From the IMG/VR virus record IMGVR_UViG_2778261064_000016: a DNA stretch of 5,501 bases; one strand, written 5' to 3'. The DNA comes from a virus. Lineage: Duplodnaviria > Heunggongvirae > Uroviricota > Caudoviricetes. Shown one piece after another: positions 716 to 3,848 of this stretch. How positions within the stretch are numbered: the stretch's first letter is position 1; each line of letters begins with the position of its first letter. The position numbers were made by a program, and so were the translations under genes. Under the pieces are notes generated by a model. The model saw only the letters and a list, made by a program, of their open reading frames with translations. It did no database searches and was not told where the DNA came from.

Positions 716-898
716 TCAGCGTCCTTTTTGCATCAGGCGTAAACGGGCCAGCATTGAAACAATGCATATTTGATTTAATAGCTCCCGTTCGTGTTTTCTC
801 TTATTAATGGCATCTTCAGTAAATACAGGGTTACTGATTCTGACACCAATTTCAAAACAACCTTCAGACGTATTAACGTTTGGTAATAACGTTTCCAT
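716..898 (-). CDS. small hypothetical protein, 60 aa, basic C-terminus
   Basis: ATG at 898..896 with SD GAGGA 7 nt upstream; stop at 718..716, only 2 bp before the next gene start at 713 (operon-like packing). Internal start of track ORF 716..994; the upstream extension has no RBS. Confidence 0.45.
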   Translation of the reverse strand: METLLPNVNTSEGCFEIGVRISNPVFTEDAINKRKHERELLNQICIVSMLARLRLMQKGR

Positions 899-953
899 TA
901 TCGCGTCCTCAACAATGAATTTTGTGATACGGTGCCTGGTGCCTCCAGGTGAC

Positions 954-974
954 GTTAACCAGTTAACAATTAAC
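954..974. repeat. three tandem (G)TTAAC motifs at 8-bp spacing in the leader of the leftward small-gene operon
   Basis: GTTAACCA GTTAACAA TTAACG read directly at 954-974, 56-78 bp upstream of the ATG at 898. GTTAAC is self-complementary. Function unknown. Confidence 0.4.
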
Positions 975-1087
975 GCCGGATACAGAGAACCCACCCATAA
1001 GAACCAATACGGAAGTCAACTGGCCTTTTTAACTGTTCCGCGTGCGCTGAGCCGCATTCACCGCATCACAAAATTCACTTTAAAAAG

Positions 1088-1127
1088 GGCGGGTATCACA
1101 AGGGAAAACAAAAAACGGATACCCGCC
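1088..1127 (-). terminator. strong hairpin (10-bp perfect stem, 20-nt loop) followed on the minus strand by CTTTTTAAAG; candidate tL-type terminator or structured RNA element
   Basis: GGCGGGTATC (1088-1097) pairs perfectly with GATACCCGCC (1118-1127). The minus-strand transcript would read stem-loop-stem then CUUUUUAAAGUG. The plus-strand side is followed by AAAAGG, so it is not a plus-strand terminator. Confidence 0.3.
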
Positions 1128-1401
1128 AAAAGGTAATCAACATGGGTTGTTGCAGCGGGTTTGTCACTTAAGCGTATGGTCAACCTGACAACCCGGTGCC
1201 ACTAATGGGGTAAGGATAACCCCGCCATACTTACCGCCGCGCCATTTCGCGGATTGCCACAACCGGAAGCGCACGGTCGACGAAAATTTAACGACAGGCT
1301 ATCTATAAACCAGCTACCTCGCCGTACGCTTTCGCGTTGTGTGCCTGCTTTTAACCACGTCAGGCGAGGTGGTTCCTGTTATTCCCCAACAACAAGAAAT
1401 T

Positions 1402-1409
1402 TGTATAAT
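1402..1409 (+). promoter_or_regulatory. putative extended -10 promoter (TGTATAAT) for the plus-strand cassette
   Basis: Perfect TATAAT at 1404-1409 immediately preceded by TG; no convincing -35. Lies 35-60 bp upstream of the candidate starts of the cassette gene. Confidence 0.35.
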
Positions 1410-1467
1410 CCGGATATCCCCAACAACGAGAAGAGTACTCAACGTGATAGCAGAACTGTCAGCGGCT

Positions 1468-1956
1468 ATGGCTGCGATAAAGGAGACAGCTGGTCTCGCT
1501 AAGGTTATTAATGACGCAAAAACGGATGCAGAAGTTAAAGCCGCAACTATTGAACTTCAGAACAAACTAATCACGCTTCAGGCGGAGTGCTTCTCTCTTG
1601 GCGATGCGATCCGTCTTCGTAACGAAGAGATAATGCTTCTCAAAGCAAAAATTGCAGAATTCGAAAACTTTCAGATTCAGACTGAAGGTTATGTTCTTAA
1701 CCAACTCGAATCGGGTGCTTTTGTATACTCGCAGGAGGAAACGGTGAATGGAGGCACTGTTACTATGCATCTTTGTCCAAAATGTTTTGGACAAAAGACA
1801 GTATCTATACTCCAGCCATTCCCGGTTAGCGAAGATGCGCCTTTTCATGAAAGTAAGTGTCTCCACTGTGAAAACAAGTTTCTGATGAACAAAAATCCGG
1901 ATTACATACCGCTGTCTTTTGATGAGATAGCGAGAACACTGGGCAGTAATCCGTAG
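1468..1956 (+). CDS. hypothetical protein, 162 aa: N-terminal coiled-coil-like helix plus C-terminal Cys4 (CxxC-24 aa-CxxC) zinc-ribbon-like domain; first gene of inverted cassette
   Basis: ATG at 1468, in frame within track ORF 1339..1956, stop at 1954-1956. No good SD before this ATG. An alternative GTG start at 1444 has a weak SD (GAGAAGAG, 8-nt spacer). Heptad-like stretch IELQNKLITLQAECFSLGDAIRLRNEEIMLLKAKIAEFENFQ, then CPKC...CLHC. No transmembrane segment. Family not recognised. Confidence 0.55.
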   Translation: MAAIKETAGLAKVINDAKTDAEVKAATIELQNKLITLQAECFSLGDAIRLRNEEIMLLKAKIAEFENFQIQTEGYVLNQLESGAFVYSQEETVNGGTVTMHLCPKCFGQKTVSILQPFPVSEDAPFHESKCLHCENKFLMNKNPDYIPLSFDEIARTLGSNP

Positions 1957-2023
1957 GTTATTGCTGTTGTGGATATCCAGATTGTTAAAGAACATGCCGG
2001 ATTCTTATCCGTGTCCGGTGCAC

Positions 2024-2047
2024 GACCACACGCTGTCACGTGTGGTC
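2024..2047 (+). other. perfect 9-bp-stem hairpin / palindrome between the two cassette genes
   Basis: GACCACACG (2024-2032) pairs with CGTGTGGTC (2039-2047), loop CTGTCA. Not followed by a T-run, so an attenuator, RNA processing site or protein-binding palindrome is more likely than a terminator. Contains a TGTCACG motif resembling the iteron core. Confidence 0.3.
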
Positions 2048-2082
2048 TCCATTCTCAACCAGTAACCTCAATGGAGGATAAA

Positions 2083-2268
2083 ATGTCAGACAAGTTAATT
2101 AACCCATTTACCTATCCATCTGTTGCAGCTTTGAACTTAACAGTTGAGTTAATTCGGGCTGGCAAAATGTCATCCCCTTCAGAGGCGGCCAATTCAGTTA
2201 TTACAATTCGCAATATATTGAAAGAAGAAAAACAAGCCGCTATGGAGAAGACTGATAAAGAGCAATAA
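2083..2268 (+). CDS. small hypothetical protein, 61 aa; second gene of inverted cassette
   Basis: ATG at 2083 preceded by strong SD GGAGGA (2073-2078); stop TAA at 2266-2268. Sequence MSDKLINPFTYPSVAALNLTVELIRAGKM... with a K/E-rich tail. The upstream extension to 1969 in the track has no RBS and spans the hairpin. Confidence 0.5.
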   Translation: MSDKLINPFTYPSVAALNLTVELIRAGKMSSPSEAANSVITIRNILKEEKQAAMEKTDKEQ

Positions 2269-2398
2269 AGGCTTCTCTGATTTCTTGAGCCAGTTTTTTA
2301 GCTGGCTCTACCTTTTCTGTCCCCCCGTCCAAAATGAGAGATTTCAGTGTTTCTGCGGCGATTTTCTGAGTGTCTGGAGGTAAATCTTTAAATTCCAT
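2240..2398 (-). CDS. small hypothetical protein, 52 aa
   Basis: ATG at 2398..2396 with SD GAGG 6 nt upstream; stop TAG at 2242..2240. MEFKDLPPDTQKIAAETLKSLILDGGTEKVEPAKKLAQEIREAFIALYQSSP. Below the ORF-track size cutoff; found by hand translation. Overlaps the 3' end of the convergent plus-strand gene by 29 bp. Position and size are reminiscent of the small Rac ydaF/ydaG genes, but the sequence is not recognised. Confidence 0.4.
   Translation of the reverse strand: MEFKDLPPDTQKIAAETLKSLILDGGTEKVEPAKKLAQEIREAFIALYQSSP
2287..2320 (+). terminator. candidate intrinsic terminator of the plus-strand cassette
   Basis: GAGCCAG (2287-2293) pairs with CTGGCTC (2302-2308), loop TTTTTTAG, followed by TACCTTTTCTGT. 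Starts 19 bp after the cassette stop codon. The T-run is not immediately adjacent to the stem, hence low confidence. Confidence 0.3.
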
Positions 2399-2409
2399 CG
2401 TCAACCTCA

Positions 2410-2562
2410 TCAGTCAGTGTTTCTGGCTAACCAGCGACGGGCACCATTTTCGGTTTTAAACGTTTTGCTTTTGGTATACGTCATCGCGGTAAACGTGCCG
2501 TCCTGGTTGGGGAATACTCCGCACACCAGAGATTCATTATTGCCAAGATTGAGCATATCCAT
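2410..2562 (-). CDS. small hypothetical protein, 50 aa
   Basis: ATG at 2562..2560 with SD GAGG 5 nt upstream; stop TGA at 2412..2410, 11 bp before the next gene start. MDMLNLGNNESLVCGVFPNQDGTFTAMTYTKSKTFKTENGARRWLARNTD. Found by hand translation. Confidence 0.4.
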   Translation of the reverse strand: MDMLNLGNNESLVCGVFPNQDGTFTAMTYTKSKTFKTENGARRWLARNTD

Positions 2563-2836: not shown

Positions 2837-3124
2837 TTAATCGTTACCAGGATATTGCTGACGAGCATGTATCACGCTAACAATTTCAATGCTTGAAGTA
2901 GCTACCCTGTATAGGATTATGTAGTTAGGGTGAGTCACGATTTCTCTCAATCCAGAAACCCGTTCGCTTGGCGGATATAGATACGGATGCTCAGATAGGG
3001 GTAGCACCGATGTTTCAATGCGTATTTTTAGTCTGCGCGCTGCCGGAGGGTTTTTCTTAGCAATGTAAGTTATAATCTGACTTAAATCATCGCGAGCAGA
3101 CGGTAACCATAAAACGGGCAGCAT
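2837..3124 (-). CDS. parE: ParE/RelE-superfamily toxin (type II TA toxin), 95 aa
   Basis: ATG at 3124..3122 overlaps the antitoxin stop (TAATG), with SD GGGAG 6 nt upstream inside the antitoxin gene. Sequence MLPVLWLPSARDDLSQIITYIAKKNPPAARRL...GLREIVTHPNYIILYRV...IEIVSVIHARQQYP shows the ParE/RelE hallmark pattern. The track ORF 2837..3247 is a 5' over-extension. Symbol is family-level; this may be parE2 of the O157 paaR2-paaA2-parE2 system. Confidence 0.85.
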   Translation of the reverse strand: MLPVLWLPSARDDLSQIITYIAKKNPPAARRLKIRIETSVLPLSEHPYLYPPSERVSGLREIVTHPNYIILYRVATSSIEIVSVIHARQQYPGND

Positions 3125-3315
3125 TACACGCTCCCGTTTTCCATGGCAATTTGATTGATGATTTTTTCCATTTTTGCCATTACTTCGTCGTGCGGTATTG
3201 CTGGTCGTGGATCTGCAAGGCTTGCTGCAACCTTGGCGCGCAACCATTCGTTGTAACTGTTTTCTTGCTCGATAGTTTCAAATTCTGAAACTATCGGCGA
3301 AAGAACTGTGCTCAT
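3124..3315 (-). CDS. cognate antitoxin, 63 aa (PaaA2/ParD-like by position)
   Basis: ATG at 3315..3313 with SD AGAGG 6 nt upstream; stop TAA at 3126..3124 overlapping the toxin ATG (translational coupling). Small acidic protein MSTVLSPIVSEFETIEQENSYNEWLRAKVAASLADPRPAIPHDEVMAKMEKIINQIAMENGSV. The 63-aa length matches what I recall for PaaA2, but the sequence is not verified. Confidence 0.75.
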   Translation of the reverse strand: MSTVLSPIVSEFETIEQENSYNEWLRAKVAASLADPRPAIPHDEVMAKMEKIINQIAMENGSV

Positions 3316-3343
3316 AGTATGCCTCTCTGTCGTATGGTTGTAA

Positions 3344-3742
3344 TTATGCTCGACGTCCTTTTTGGGCGGCAAGCCATCTTGCAACTGTGCGATCCATTGA
3401 TTCTTTTTTGTCTTTCATGTCTTTAAGCATTTGTTCTTGCTCCTCTTCTGGGAACGCCCCAAATGTTTGAAGCAAATCTCTCTGGCGCGGTCCTATTTTC
3501 ATTGTGTCAGGTACTACAACCTGTTCATCCTCGCTCGGAGGAAGCATGAACCAAAAAATAGGCCGAGCAGTTATTTGTGAAAGTCGATCTAAATTGTCAG
3601 GATTTGGACTAACTAAGCCAGCAGCCCATCGCTGCACTGTTTGTTGCGACACACCAACTAATTTCCCAAGCTCCGCCTGACTCCAGCCTGTTTCAGACAA
3701 GAGTTTCTTTATTCTGTATGCAGTAATCTCGAGTGTTTTCAT
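3344..3742 (-). CDS. cI-like prophage repressor, HTH (XRE-type), 132 aa, RacR/PaaR2-like; no peptidase S24 domain
   Basis: ATG at 3742..3740, stop at 3346..3344. HTH motif in GWSQAELGKLVGVSQQTVQRWAAG. No SD, but a -10-like TAGAAT lies 7 nt upstream of the ATG, suggesting a leaderless mRNA. Divergent from the cro-like gene; 28 bp upstream of the antitoxin gene on the same strand. Too short for a LexA-type autocleavage domain. Confidence 0.85.
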   Translation of the reverse strand: MKTLEITAYRIKKLLSETGWSQAELGKLVGVSQQTVQRWAAGLVSPNPDNLDRLSQITARPIFWFMLPPSEDEQVVVPDTMKIGPRQRDLLQTFGAFPEEEQEQMLKDMKDKKESMDRTVARWLAAQKGRRA

Positions 3743-3753
3743 AGTAACAATTC

Positions 3754-3770
3754 TACTCAAAAAACGAGTA
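3754..3770. promoter_or_regulatory. 17-bp operator-like palindrome TACTC-N7-GAGTA in the divergent repressor/cro intergenic region
   Basis: TACTCaaaaaacGAGTA is a perfect 5-7-5 inverted repeat with an A-rich spacer. It abuts the -10-like element of the repressor promoter (attcta at 3750-3755 on plus = TAGAAT on minus). Confidence 0.4.
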
Positions 3771-3801
3771 ATGCGCGACACACTAAAAATGGGTTTACAT
3801 A

Positions 3802-3818
3802 TACACATTTTTTGTGTA
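3802..3818. promoter_or_regulatory. 17-bp operator-like palindrome TACAC-N7-GTGTA overlapping the putative rightward (PR-like) promoter
   Basis: TACACattttttGTGTA is a perfect 5-7-5 inverted repeat. It sits between a -35-like TTTACA (3794-3799) and a -10-like TAACCT (3817-3822), upstream of the ydaS-like gene SD GGAGG (3836-3840). Confidence 0.4.
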
Positions 3819-3848
3819 ACCTCCAGCCGCATGATGGAGGTACAAATA

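Follow-up and report, generated by a model that had tools for sequence, protein, structure and literature searches.

A candidate abortive-infection gene of the Rip1 family in the sieB slot of an Escherichia coli Rac/Qin-type prophage

Introduction

Ring interacting pore 1 (Rip1) acts alone: this one prophage protein suffices for defence and is not toxic by itself (Patel et al. 2026, Nature 651:1060, as summarised in the review PMC13434031). According to this summary, Rip1 is triggered late in infection, and phages escape it by mutations in the portal (Pseudomonas phages) or in the small terminase, TerS (Escherichia coli phages). Twelve Rip1 monomers surround an 11-mer TerS ring; the N-terminal part of Rip1 is an amphipathic helix, and the C-terminal half touches the ring. 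The summary describes the complex as a pore that permeabilises liposomes and cells, aborting infection, and Rip1 homologs as widespread in proteobacterial prophages (PMC13434031). A structure released on 2026-02-04 (PDB 9oox) is titled 'Cryo-EM structure of the Escherichia phage HK446 Rip1 in complex with the Enterobacteria phage T6 small terminase'. Here we analyse a 5,501-nucleotide stretch of viral DNA (the window; IMG/VR record IMGVR_UViG_2778261064_000016) in which the first of two inverted plus-strand genes, gene 1, is assigned to the Rip1 family.

The window covers the early-left and immunity region of an E. coli prophage, a lambdoid one of the Rac/Qin type. An earlier note on this DNA reported two plus-strand open reading frames (ORFs) inverted relative to their neighbours. 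Both are present, and all flanking genes are on the minus strand. The note took the pair for one accessory cassette of uncharacterised proteins. In our analysis, gene 1 likely encodes a single-protein abortive-infection defence of the Rip1 family, which would be transcribed in the lysogen from a sieB-slot promoter antisense to the repressed early-left operon. Gene 2 appears to be a separate element.

Results

Gene 1 matches Rip1 in sequence and predicted fold

Gene 1 (1444-1956, plus strand) encodes a 170-residue protein. Translation was previously placed at ATG 1468, but the start has to be moved to GTG 1444, the PGAP start of the 100%-identical gene in the E. coli RM9088 prophage. The eight residues added at the N-terminus, (M)IAELSAA, are conserved in homologs of more than 15 genera, each behind a GTG.

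A sequence search of the PDB returns one match, chain 9oox_L, 'ring interacting pore 1 (Rip1)' (E=1.5e-11). Residues 5-150 of gene 1 align with residues 15-159 of the chain, and all four cysteines are aligned. When a profile of 27 homologs is used as the query, 9oox is found with E=1.3e-20 and the next match has E=0.33. The AlphaFold2 model of gene 1 (mean predicted local distance difference test score, pLDDT, 90.9) consists of an Ala/Gly-rich helix (residues 2-24), a long helix (28-79), a beta-rich Cys4 zinc ribbon (84-150), and a short C-terminal helix (159-167). In a Foldseek search of the PDB with this model, only 9oox_L and 9oox_M are significant (probability 1.00, target-normalised template-modelling score 0.53-0.72). 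These matches establish the family and the fold of gene 1, which had been regarded as belonging to no characterised family; it is a homolog of a protein with a solved structure (9oox) and a published mechanism.

The architecture read from the bare sequence agrees with the model. The coiled-coil-like helix is followed by the Cys4 ribbon, whose CxxC-24 aa-CxxC motif (C111, C114, C139, and C142) is invariant in the 27 homologs, and no transmembrane segment is present (maximum KD19 1.06).

At the family level, gene 1 matches phrog_1244 (2.7e-54). The same PHROG contains HK446 gp37, HK620 HkaP, JBD30 gp30, and the allele of E. coli strain 41, with E values from 1e-32 to 1e-61 across the set. A tblastn search with gene 1 finds homologs (29% identity, 92% coverage) in DMS3, JBD30, and D3112, which are Mu-like phages of Pseudomonas. 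The JBD30 homolog is inverted between a terS-like gene and terL, which is the site that the review gives for the original Rip1 (PMC13434031).

Conservation is uneven along the protein. The N-terminal 100 residues have an entropy of 0.94 bits, whereas the C-terminal 70 residues have an entropy of 1.76 bits. A conserved N-terminal part joined to a variable C-terminal part is the pattern expected for a conserved effector and a diversifying sensor.

Scans of both proteins against Pfam, NCBIfam, and PADLOC give nothing above threshold, and hence no known toxin, antitoxin, or defence component among their homologs; the matches to DUF641, FANCAA, and CdsZ are noise. PADLOC 2023 contains no model for HK446 Rip1 or for SieB, so its silence is uninformative. 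Homology to structural or replication genes is absent, and the two genes are not conserved together as core genes; the suggestion of a moron or defence gene therefore holds, for gene 1 only. On the evidence of sequence and structural model, gene 1 is a divergent member of the Rip1 family and not a new kind of system.

DNA resembling gene 1 occurs in about 736 of 5,426 complete E. coli genomes, O157:H7 and O55:H7 included. In many E. coli genomes, the similarity to gene 1 (80-86% identity) covers just nucleotides 182-513 or 1-375. These partial matches indicate that the alleles are mosaic, the effector half (N-terminal) recombining independently of the sensor half (C-terminal).

Gene 1 diverges from the characterised Rip1 proteins

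HK446 Rip1 (gp37) and HK620 HkaP are the nearest described relatives in a lambdoid setting. Besides the PHROG, they share with gene 1 the length class (164 vs 170 residues), the order of N-terminal helices followed by a Cys4 zinc-ribbon beta domain, and the position as a lone inverted gene in the early-left operon, there beside N, behind the same sieB-type leader. They differ from it in several respects. Identity is 26-28%, and the ring-contacting C-terminal half has diverged in gene 1, which also has the extra C-terminal helix (159-167) and an acidic net charge. In addition, the prophage of the window is of the N-less Rac/Qin (dicB) type and not of the N-dependent lambda/HK97 type, and the Rip1 module in the window lacks its own terminator and is followed by a second ORF.

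The Pseudomonas aeruginosa proteins (JBD30 gp30, DMS3, and D3112 orf25) have the same PHROG and match gene 1 with E=3e-13 over 92% of the length. They are likewise encoded by single inverted prophage genes, and the pore triggered by portal or small-terminase rings, as the review summarises it (PMC13434031), is the mechanism that we transfer by homology to gene 1. In contrast to gene 1, these genes lie between terS and terL of Mu-like phages without a sieB-type leader, and both the trigger proteins and the host are different.

Several points weigh against assigning the Rip1 mechanism to gene 1. The identity to the characterised Rip1 proteins is just 26-29%; therefore, the trigger specificity, and even the type of ring sensed, is not transferable. 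The Ala/Gly-rich N-terminal helix is similar in character to that of HK446 Rip1, but its hydrophobic moment (muH) is modest, up to 0.34 with a KD19 of 1.06, compared with 0.42 and 1.28 for HK446 Rip1. The net charge of the protein is -8, compared with +3 for HK446 and +2 for HK620. The -35 element of the promoter described below is poor, and a consensus scan does not call the promoter. Lastly, the mechanism itself is taken from the summary in the review (PMC13434031) and the title of 9oox.

The low identity and the different charge could also mean that gene 1 is Rip1 by descent but does not act as a ring-triggered pore here; it could instead be a classical exclusion factor working at the surface or at entry, a regulator with a zinc ribbon, or a decayed relic. 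Older annotation of HK620 hkaP says just 'putative superinfection exclusion protein', and gene 1 gives a weak NCBIfam match to the zinc-ribbon regulator CdsZ (E=0.033). However, this match scores 13.6 bits against a cutoff of 275, and it is confined to the coiled-coil region. The ORF is intact, and the invariant cysteines and helix residues are kept over more than 15 genera. The full-length architecture and the fold agree with Rip1, and the division into a conserved N-terminal and a variable C-terminal part suits an effector and a sensor. We consider a changed role very unlikely.

For the preferred reading, a Rip1-type abortive-infection protein, we infer lysogen expression, the trigger, pore formation, and co-transcription with gene 2 as follows. 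In the lysogen, the early-left operon would be repressed, and the sieB-type promoter would transcribe gene 1 antisense to it. By homology to Rip1, the protein would be harmless in itself and would idle until, late in the infection, portal or small-terminase rings of a superinfecting phage appear. Its variable C-terminal half, with the zinc ribbon, would then bind around the ring, and about 12 copies would assemble. The conserved, putatively amphipathic N-terminal helices would open a pore in the inner membrane, and the cell would lyse or depolarise before phage progeny mature. The transcript probably does not stop at the hairpin (2024-2047) but extends across gene 2 as far as 2287-2318. More speculatively, induction of the prophage might send leftward transcription through gene 1 in the antisense direction.

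The promoter and leader of gene 1 are homologous to those of sieB

Gene 1 is preceded by a block of about 105 nt (1340-1443, plus strand) that is homologous to the promoter region of sieB. In a blastn search against phage genomes, this leader matches 146 records. The match in P22 overlaps the annotated feature 'sieB: promoter', and the match in lambda lies directly upstream of sieB. The promoter proposed upstream of gene 1 is thus backed by homology to the annotated P22 promoter and its mapped RNA start, and the location of gene 1, which had been called sieB-equivalent by intuition, is literally so, because its leader is homologous to the P22/lambda sieB promoter.

The -10 hexamer at 1404-1409 is a perfect TATAAT and aligns with the P22 -10 element GATAAA. 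Transfer of the P22 start by this alignment places the putative transcription start of gene 1 at about 1416-1417. The promoter had been described as an extended -10 (1402-1409), but its TG is at -14/-13, right against the hexamer, and not at -15/-14, so the element is not canonical. The -35 equivalent, TATTCC (1380-1385), is a poor match. The Shine-Dalgarno (SD) sequence of gene 1, GAGAAGAG, is at 1428-1435.

The leader is nearly invariant across the six E. coli loci, even where the protein is at 36% identity. The block is kept in more than 15 genera, in every enterobacterial locus examined, HK446 and HK620 included. It contains an invariant hairpin (AACCAC..GTGGTT, 1353-1374) and two direct repeats, CCCCAACAAC(A/G)AG, at 1384-1396 and 1418-1430, which flank the -10 element. 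The repeats co-vary by lineage, reading CCCCAACAAC[A/G]AG in the group of the window and CCCCTACAG in lambda, P22, and HK446. Folding of the hairpin region (1345-1390) is no better than that of shuffled sequence on either strand (z -1.0 and -0.3). Therefore, RNA stability alone does not explain the conservation of the hairpin. This suggests that the hairpin may have a protein-binding or regulatory role rather than forming a simple RNA structure.

SieB of lambda and P22 is another described system with which gene 1 has to be compared. SieB is a membrane protein. It shares with gene 1 the slot, the orientation, the homologous promoter and leader, and presumably the class of role, namely lysogen-expressed abortive infection of superinfecting phages. 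The slot and the promoter are common to both, but the protein is not. SieB is an unrelated protein of 192 residues that belongs to phrog_1301 and, in P22, phrog_6399, whereas gene 1 matches phrog_1244 only, has a zinc ribbon and no transmembrane segment, and shows no evident Esc-like internal product. The earlier statement that gene 1 does not look like SieB is correct.

The cargo behind the leader varies. Among 45 sampled viral contigs in which an ORF comes after the leader, this ORF encodes SieB in 16, a Rip1-family protein in 13, a phrog_5286 protein in 13, and a singleton in 3. The phrog_5286 family (144 residues, no PADLOC match) follows the leader about as often as SieB or Rip1; in one example (L043, among the viral loci L039-L158), the ORF begins 69 nt past the leader core. 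The singletons belong to phrog_10348 (78 residues) and phrog_10846 (83 residues) or, in one case, are a 176-residue protein. The phrog_5286, phrog_10348, phrog_10846, and 176-residue proteins are candidates for uncharacterised exclusion or defence genes.

The Rip1 module has lost its terminator in the lineage of the window

The leader and gene 1 are exchanged as one module, whose boundaries (about 1340-2004) are defined by comparison with E. coli genomes that have gene 2 and lack Rip1, where the module is replaced by a 44-bp filler (R1 and BCE049). Its 3' end carries a conserved box, TGGATATCCAGATTGTTAAAGAAC (1972-1996); the motif occurs once in the window, compared with 0.03 occurrences expected. 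In most loci of other genera, as well as in phage PhiR49_1, the stop codon of gene 1 is followed by the box, which there reads GGATATCCAGATTGTTAAAGAGC, and then by an intrinsic terminator (AAGCGTCC-loop-GGGCGCTTTTTT). The genera with box and terminator are Citrobacter, Kosakonia, Buttiauxella, Enterobacter, Scandinavium, Erwinia, and Symbiopectobacterium. Because the terminator directly follows the box in most other-genus loci, the Rip1 unit would ancestrally be a monocistronic moron.

In the lineage of the window, the box is retained and the terminator is replaced by a sequence without a U-tract. The locus still has the features of a moron, namely a promoter (by homology), an inverted orientation, and a module that is present or absent between collinear prophages, with the terminator displaced to 2287-2308. 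Because the module's own terminator is missing, read-through from gene 1 into gene 2 is probable.

Read on the minus strand, the box contains a boxA-like element, TGTTCTTTAACAA (1982-1994), which is found at the same relative place in 16 loci (L001-L005, L010, L018, L020, L022, L025, L026, L028, L030, and L032-L034). It agrees with the rrn/P22-type boxA consensus. In other genera, the box reads CGCTCTTTAACAA on the minus strand and is preceded on that strand by a hairpin; the same hairpin is the intrinsic terminator of Rip1 on the plus strand. In these N-less prophages, the box may serve the leftward early transcript as a site resembling nutL or an rrn antiterminator.

Downstream of the box, the perfect 9-bp hairpin noticed earlier between the two genes is present at 2024-2047 (free energy -16 kcal/mol, z -2.8). 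It has no U-tract. It is retained in R1 and BCE049, where gene 1 is absent; judged by this distribution, it belongs to the conserved sequence upstream of the second slot and not to the Rip1 module. In a comparison of the window with loci L002, L005, and L007, the stem is kept, and the loop and inner stem are reverse-complemented in some strains (ACGCTGTCACGT vs ACGTGACAGCGT); in strain 41 and AJ1, the loop is flipped with the stem preserved. The flipped loop looks like the inversion of a palindromic segment or a recombination scar.

The first plausible plus-strand terminator after gene 1 and gene 2 is at 2287-2318, where a hairpin of 9 pairs including G-U is followed by a partial U-tract (free energy -15 kcal/mol, z -5.9). 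In the region, seven terminator-like sites are found, compared with 2.3 expected. Of the hairpin plus T-tract described after gene 2, the hairpin (2287-2308) is there, followed by UACCUUUUCU, but the T-tract is only partial. The hairpin sits inside a convergent minus-strand ORF, and the same terminator-like sequence follows gene 2 in R1.

Gene 2 is not the partner of gene 1

Gene 2 (61 residues; 2083-2268, plus strand) lies on the same strand as gene 1 and next to it. The pair had been proposed as a toxin-antitoxin-like module. If so, gene 2 could be an antitoxin-like partner, or it could modulate or neutralise the Rip1-like protein and provide self-immunity, as Esc does for P22 SieB; a self-immunity product is annotated in the sieB slot of P22. 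The arrangement of the window is compatible with such a unit, since the hairpin between the genes has no U-tract, the first terminator-like site lies past gene 2, and the canonical Rip1 terminator is lost in this lineage. In addition, a second small ORF behind a conserved SD and ATG follows the Rip1 allele in five of six E. coli dicB-type loci.

However, either gene occurs far more often without the other than with it. Gene 2 is present at full length in seven complete E. coli genomes. Six of them (R1, KS-NP019, SC407, BCE049, ARS-C101, and EC11) have no Rip1 homolog, and the seventh, strain 41, has an allele 36% identical to gene 1. The exact pair of gene 1 and gene 2 is found in no complete E. 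coli genome. Conversely, when all ORFs of 28 Rip1-family loci are searched with hidden Markov models, the window and strain 41 alone yield a homolog of gene 2, and the other 26 loci have none within 3 kb. Rip1 occurs without gene 2 in O55:H7 (and at the DNA level likewise in O157:H7), AJ1, HK446, HK620, JBD30, and 18 loci of other genera. The family thus consists of single genes without a fixed partner, as Rip1 itself does.

The second slot also varies in content. The ORF bodies found there belong to three unrelated families, one of them represented by a pseudogene, and in an unrelated prophage a sieB-type promoter has a 59%-identical homolog of gene 2 as its only cargo. Moreover, Rip1 alone is non-toxic and sufficient for defence in the published summary (PMC13434031). 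Like type II toxin-antitoxin modules, the locus is part of the accessory region of a prophage and has two small neighbouring ORFs on one strand, but it has no homology to toxin-antitoxin families, the two genes are not co-inherited, and the gene order and the 126-bp spacing with a hairpin in between are atypical. A single two-component module is therefore extremely unlikely. Judged by these distributions, gene 2 is not needed for Rip1 function and is not the partner of gene 1. The proposed cassette resolves into two separate recombination modules, the Rip1 module (about 1340-2004) and the gene 2 block (about 2100-2410).

Gene 2 is probably a separate small moron

The gene 2 block is the sole part of the window that differs from the RM9088 prophage, which is otherwise 99.7% identical across 94% of the window length. 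Gene 2 is very rare. Its DNA is found in 10 of the 5,426 complete E. coli genomes, at full length in seven, and frameshifted and truncated variants exist (P0124-P0127). Searches with gene 2 give no Foldseek match below E=3, nothing by tblastn against 50,697 phage records, and no PDB match, in addition to the empty profile scans given above. Gene 2 could thus be no functional gene but an ORF that arose by chance where recombination has scrambled the DNA separating the Rip1 module from the ydf genes. The E. coli copies have three variable sites, which are too few for a selection test; two of the three are synonymous.

Several observations argue against a chance ORF. The strong SD reported for gene 2 is confirmed as GGAGGA (2073-2078), near-consensus and ideally spaced, 4 nt ahead of ATG 2083. 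An exhaustive HMMER search finds relatives of the same length with 46-59% identity, which keep the core AALxLTxELIRAGK...AAxSVIxIR. Gene 2 matches phrog_17494 (1e-7), and its AlphaFold2 model (pLDDT 78) is a confident, soluble two-helix hairpin (helices 10-25 and 32-59). In prophage L016, the 59%-identical homolog is inverted beside an S24 repressor gene and is the only cargo directly behind a sieB-type leader; therefore, the gene 2 family is itself an alternative cargo of the sieB slot. We regard a chance origin as unlikely. Gene 2 is probably a real gene of a rare small-protein family and a separate small moron.

In a Pfam scan of large proteins weakly matching gene 2 (P0130, P0133, and P0134), the only domains listed (cadherin/Ig in P0133 and one sub-threshold TPR_26 in P0134) lie outside the matched segments. 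An Rfam match to PhrS over gene 2 is at chance level (E=0.46). Gene 2 has no similarity to the product of the overlapping minus-strand ORF or to the ORF in the second slot of RM9088.

In E. coli dicB-type loci, the same SD and ATG (2073-2085) precede the three unrelated bodies, which are gene 2 (phrog_17494), a 69-residue phrog_4274 ORF (a pseudogene in RM11911), and an 81-residue phrog_10133 ORF (AJ1). The AJ1 ORF (L005, 3763-4008, plus strand) is unannotated and zinc-ribbon-like (MPTKLCPACNSS...CPKHG; phrog_10133, 1.9e-28); PGAP left the 325-bp stretch that contains it empty.

A convergent ORF of 52-56 residues (2240-2398 or 2240-2410, minus strand; phrog_9419) overlaps gene 2 by 29 bp. It always travels with gene 2, does not belong to the Rip1 module, and is annotated by PGAP in all seven genomes with the full-length gene. 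The minus-strand ORF matches just the N-terminal 50 or so residues of phrog_1363, phrog_2151, phrog_33007, and phrog_6937, and also the N-termini of a 212-residue gene product in RM9088 (L001, 3994-4632) and of a 186-residue 'RNA-binding protein' in AJ1 (L005, 3965-4525). By these alignments, it resembles a truncated N-terminal module, a remnant of the recombination event by which gene 2 arrived.

Neighbouring genes of the prophage

The early-left operon includes a DUF1482 gene (510-767), DicB (716-994), and DUF1391/YdfA (2410-2562), all on the minus strand, as well as the PaaA2-ParE genes. Farther right are a ParE toxin and PaaA2 antitoxin set (2837-3384, minus strand; PaaA2 3.2e-22, ParE 6.3e-17), a helix-turn-helix repressor gene (3344-3832, minus strand), and, in the right part of the window, plus-strand cro-like and YdaT-like genes. 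PaaA2-ParE is a genuine type II toxin-antitoxin set, separate from gene 1 and gene 2 and 600 bp to their right. It lies directly downstream of the repressor gene and overlaps it (together 2837-3832, minus strand), a layout resembling that of paaR2-paaA2-parE2 in O157:H7 prophages. The long ORF calls at 2837-3247 and 3124-3384 overlap, and the true starts are probably internal.

The best sigma-70-like site of the region is at 2741-2770 on the minus strand (TTGACT-18-TATGAT, 10/12), directed leftward and upstream of ydfA. It might drive the dicB-type operon from within, past the toxin-antitoxin genes. Rfam finds no match to DicF anywhere in the window, despite the dicB-operon neighbours. A sub-threshold STnc100-like match (866-1089, minus strand; 34.1 bits vs a gathering score of 47, E=9e-5) overlaps the 5' part of the long DicB ORF. 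An ORF antisense to gene 1 (1567-1995, minus strand, 142 residues) was rejected as a real gene. It has no PHROG match and is unannotated in related genomes, and it is also disfavoured by the conservation of gene 1 on the opposite strand across genera.

Discussion

The assignment of gene 1 provides a mechanism-level annotation, at the strength given above, for a family that is labelled 'hypothetical' in every database searched and has homologs in more than 15 enterobacterial genera. The variable, divergent C-terminal domain predicts a trigger specificity unlike that of HK446 Rip1. Such specificity is relevant wherever phage host range is to be predicted for lysogens of pathogenic E. coli.

Behind the classic sieB promoter, known from lambda and P22, unrelated abortive-infection genes appear to replace one another as cargo, which makes the promoter a conserved socket for expression. 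The shared socket explains the intuition of a sieB-equivalent position in the earlier note. The cargoes seen are SieB, Rip1, phrog_5286, phrog_10348, phrog_10846, and the gene 2 family. A stronger version of this idea holds that the gene 2 family is itself stand-alone cargo of the sieB slot, encoding a lysogen-expressed exclusion, defence, or host-modulating miniprotein, and that the leader together with the boxA/terminator box forms a portable socket for swapped defence genes. This version is tentative, and we judge it improbable as a whole.

The interest that remains lies in the sieB socket with its swappable cargo, in the gene 2 family and phrog_5286, and in the bifunctional boxA/terminator box. 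Both the 61-residue gene 2 family and phrog_5286 are cheap, well-defined places to look for new small defence proteins. Reading what follows the leader is a simple route to further prophage defence genes, and if the socket reading is true, the leader would be usable as bait for new anti-phage genes.

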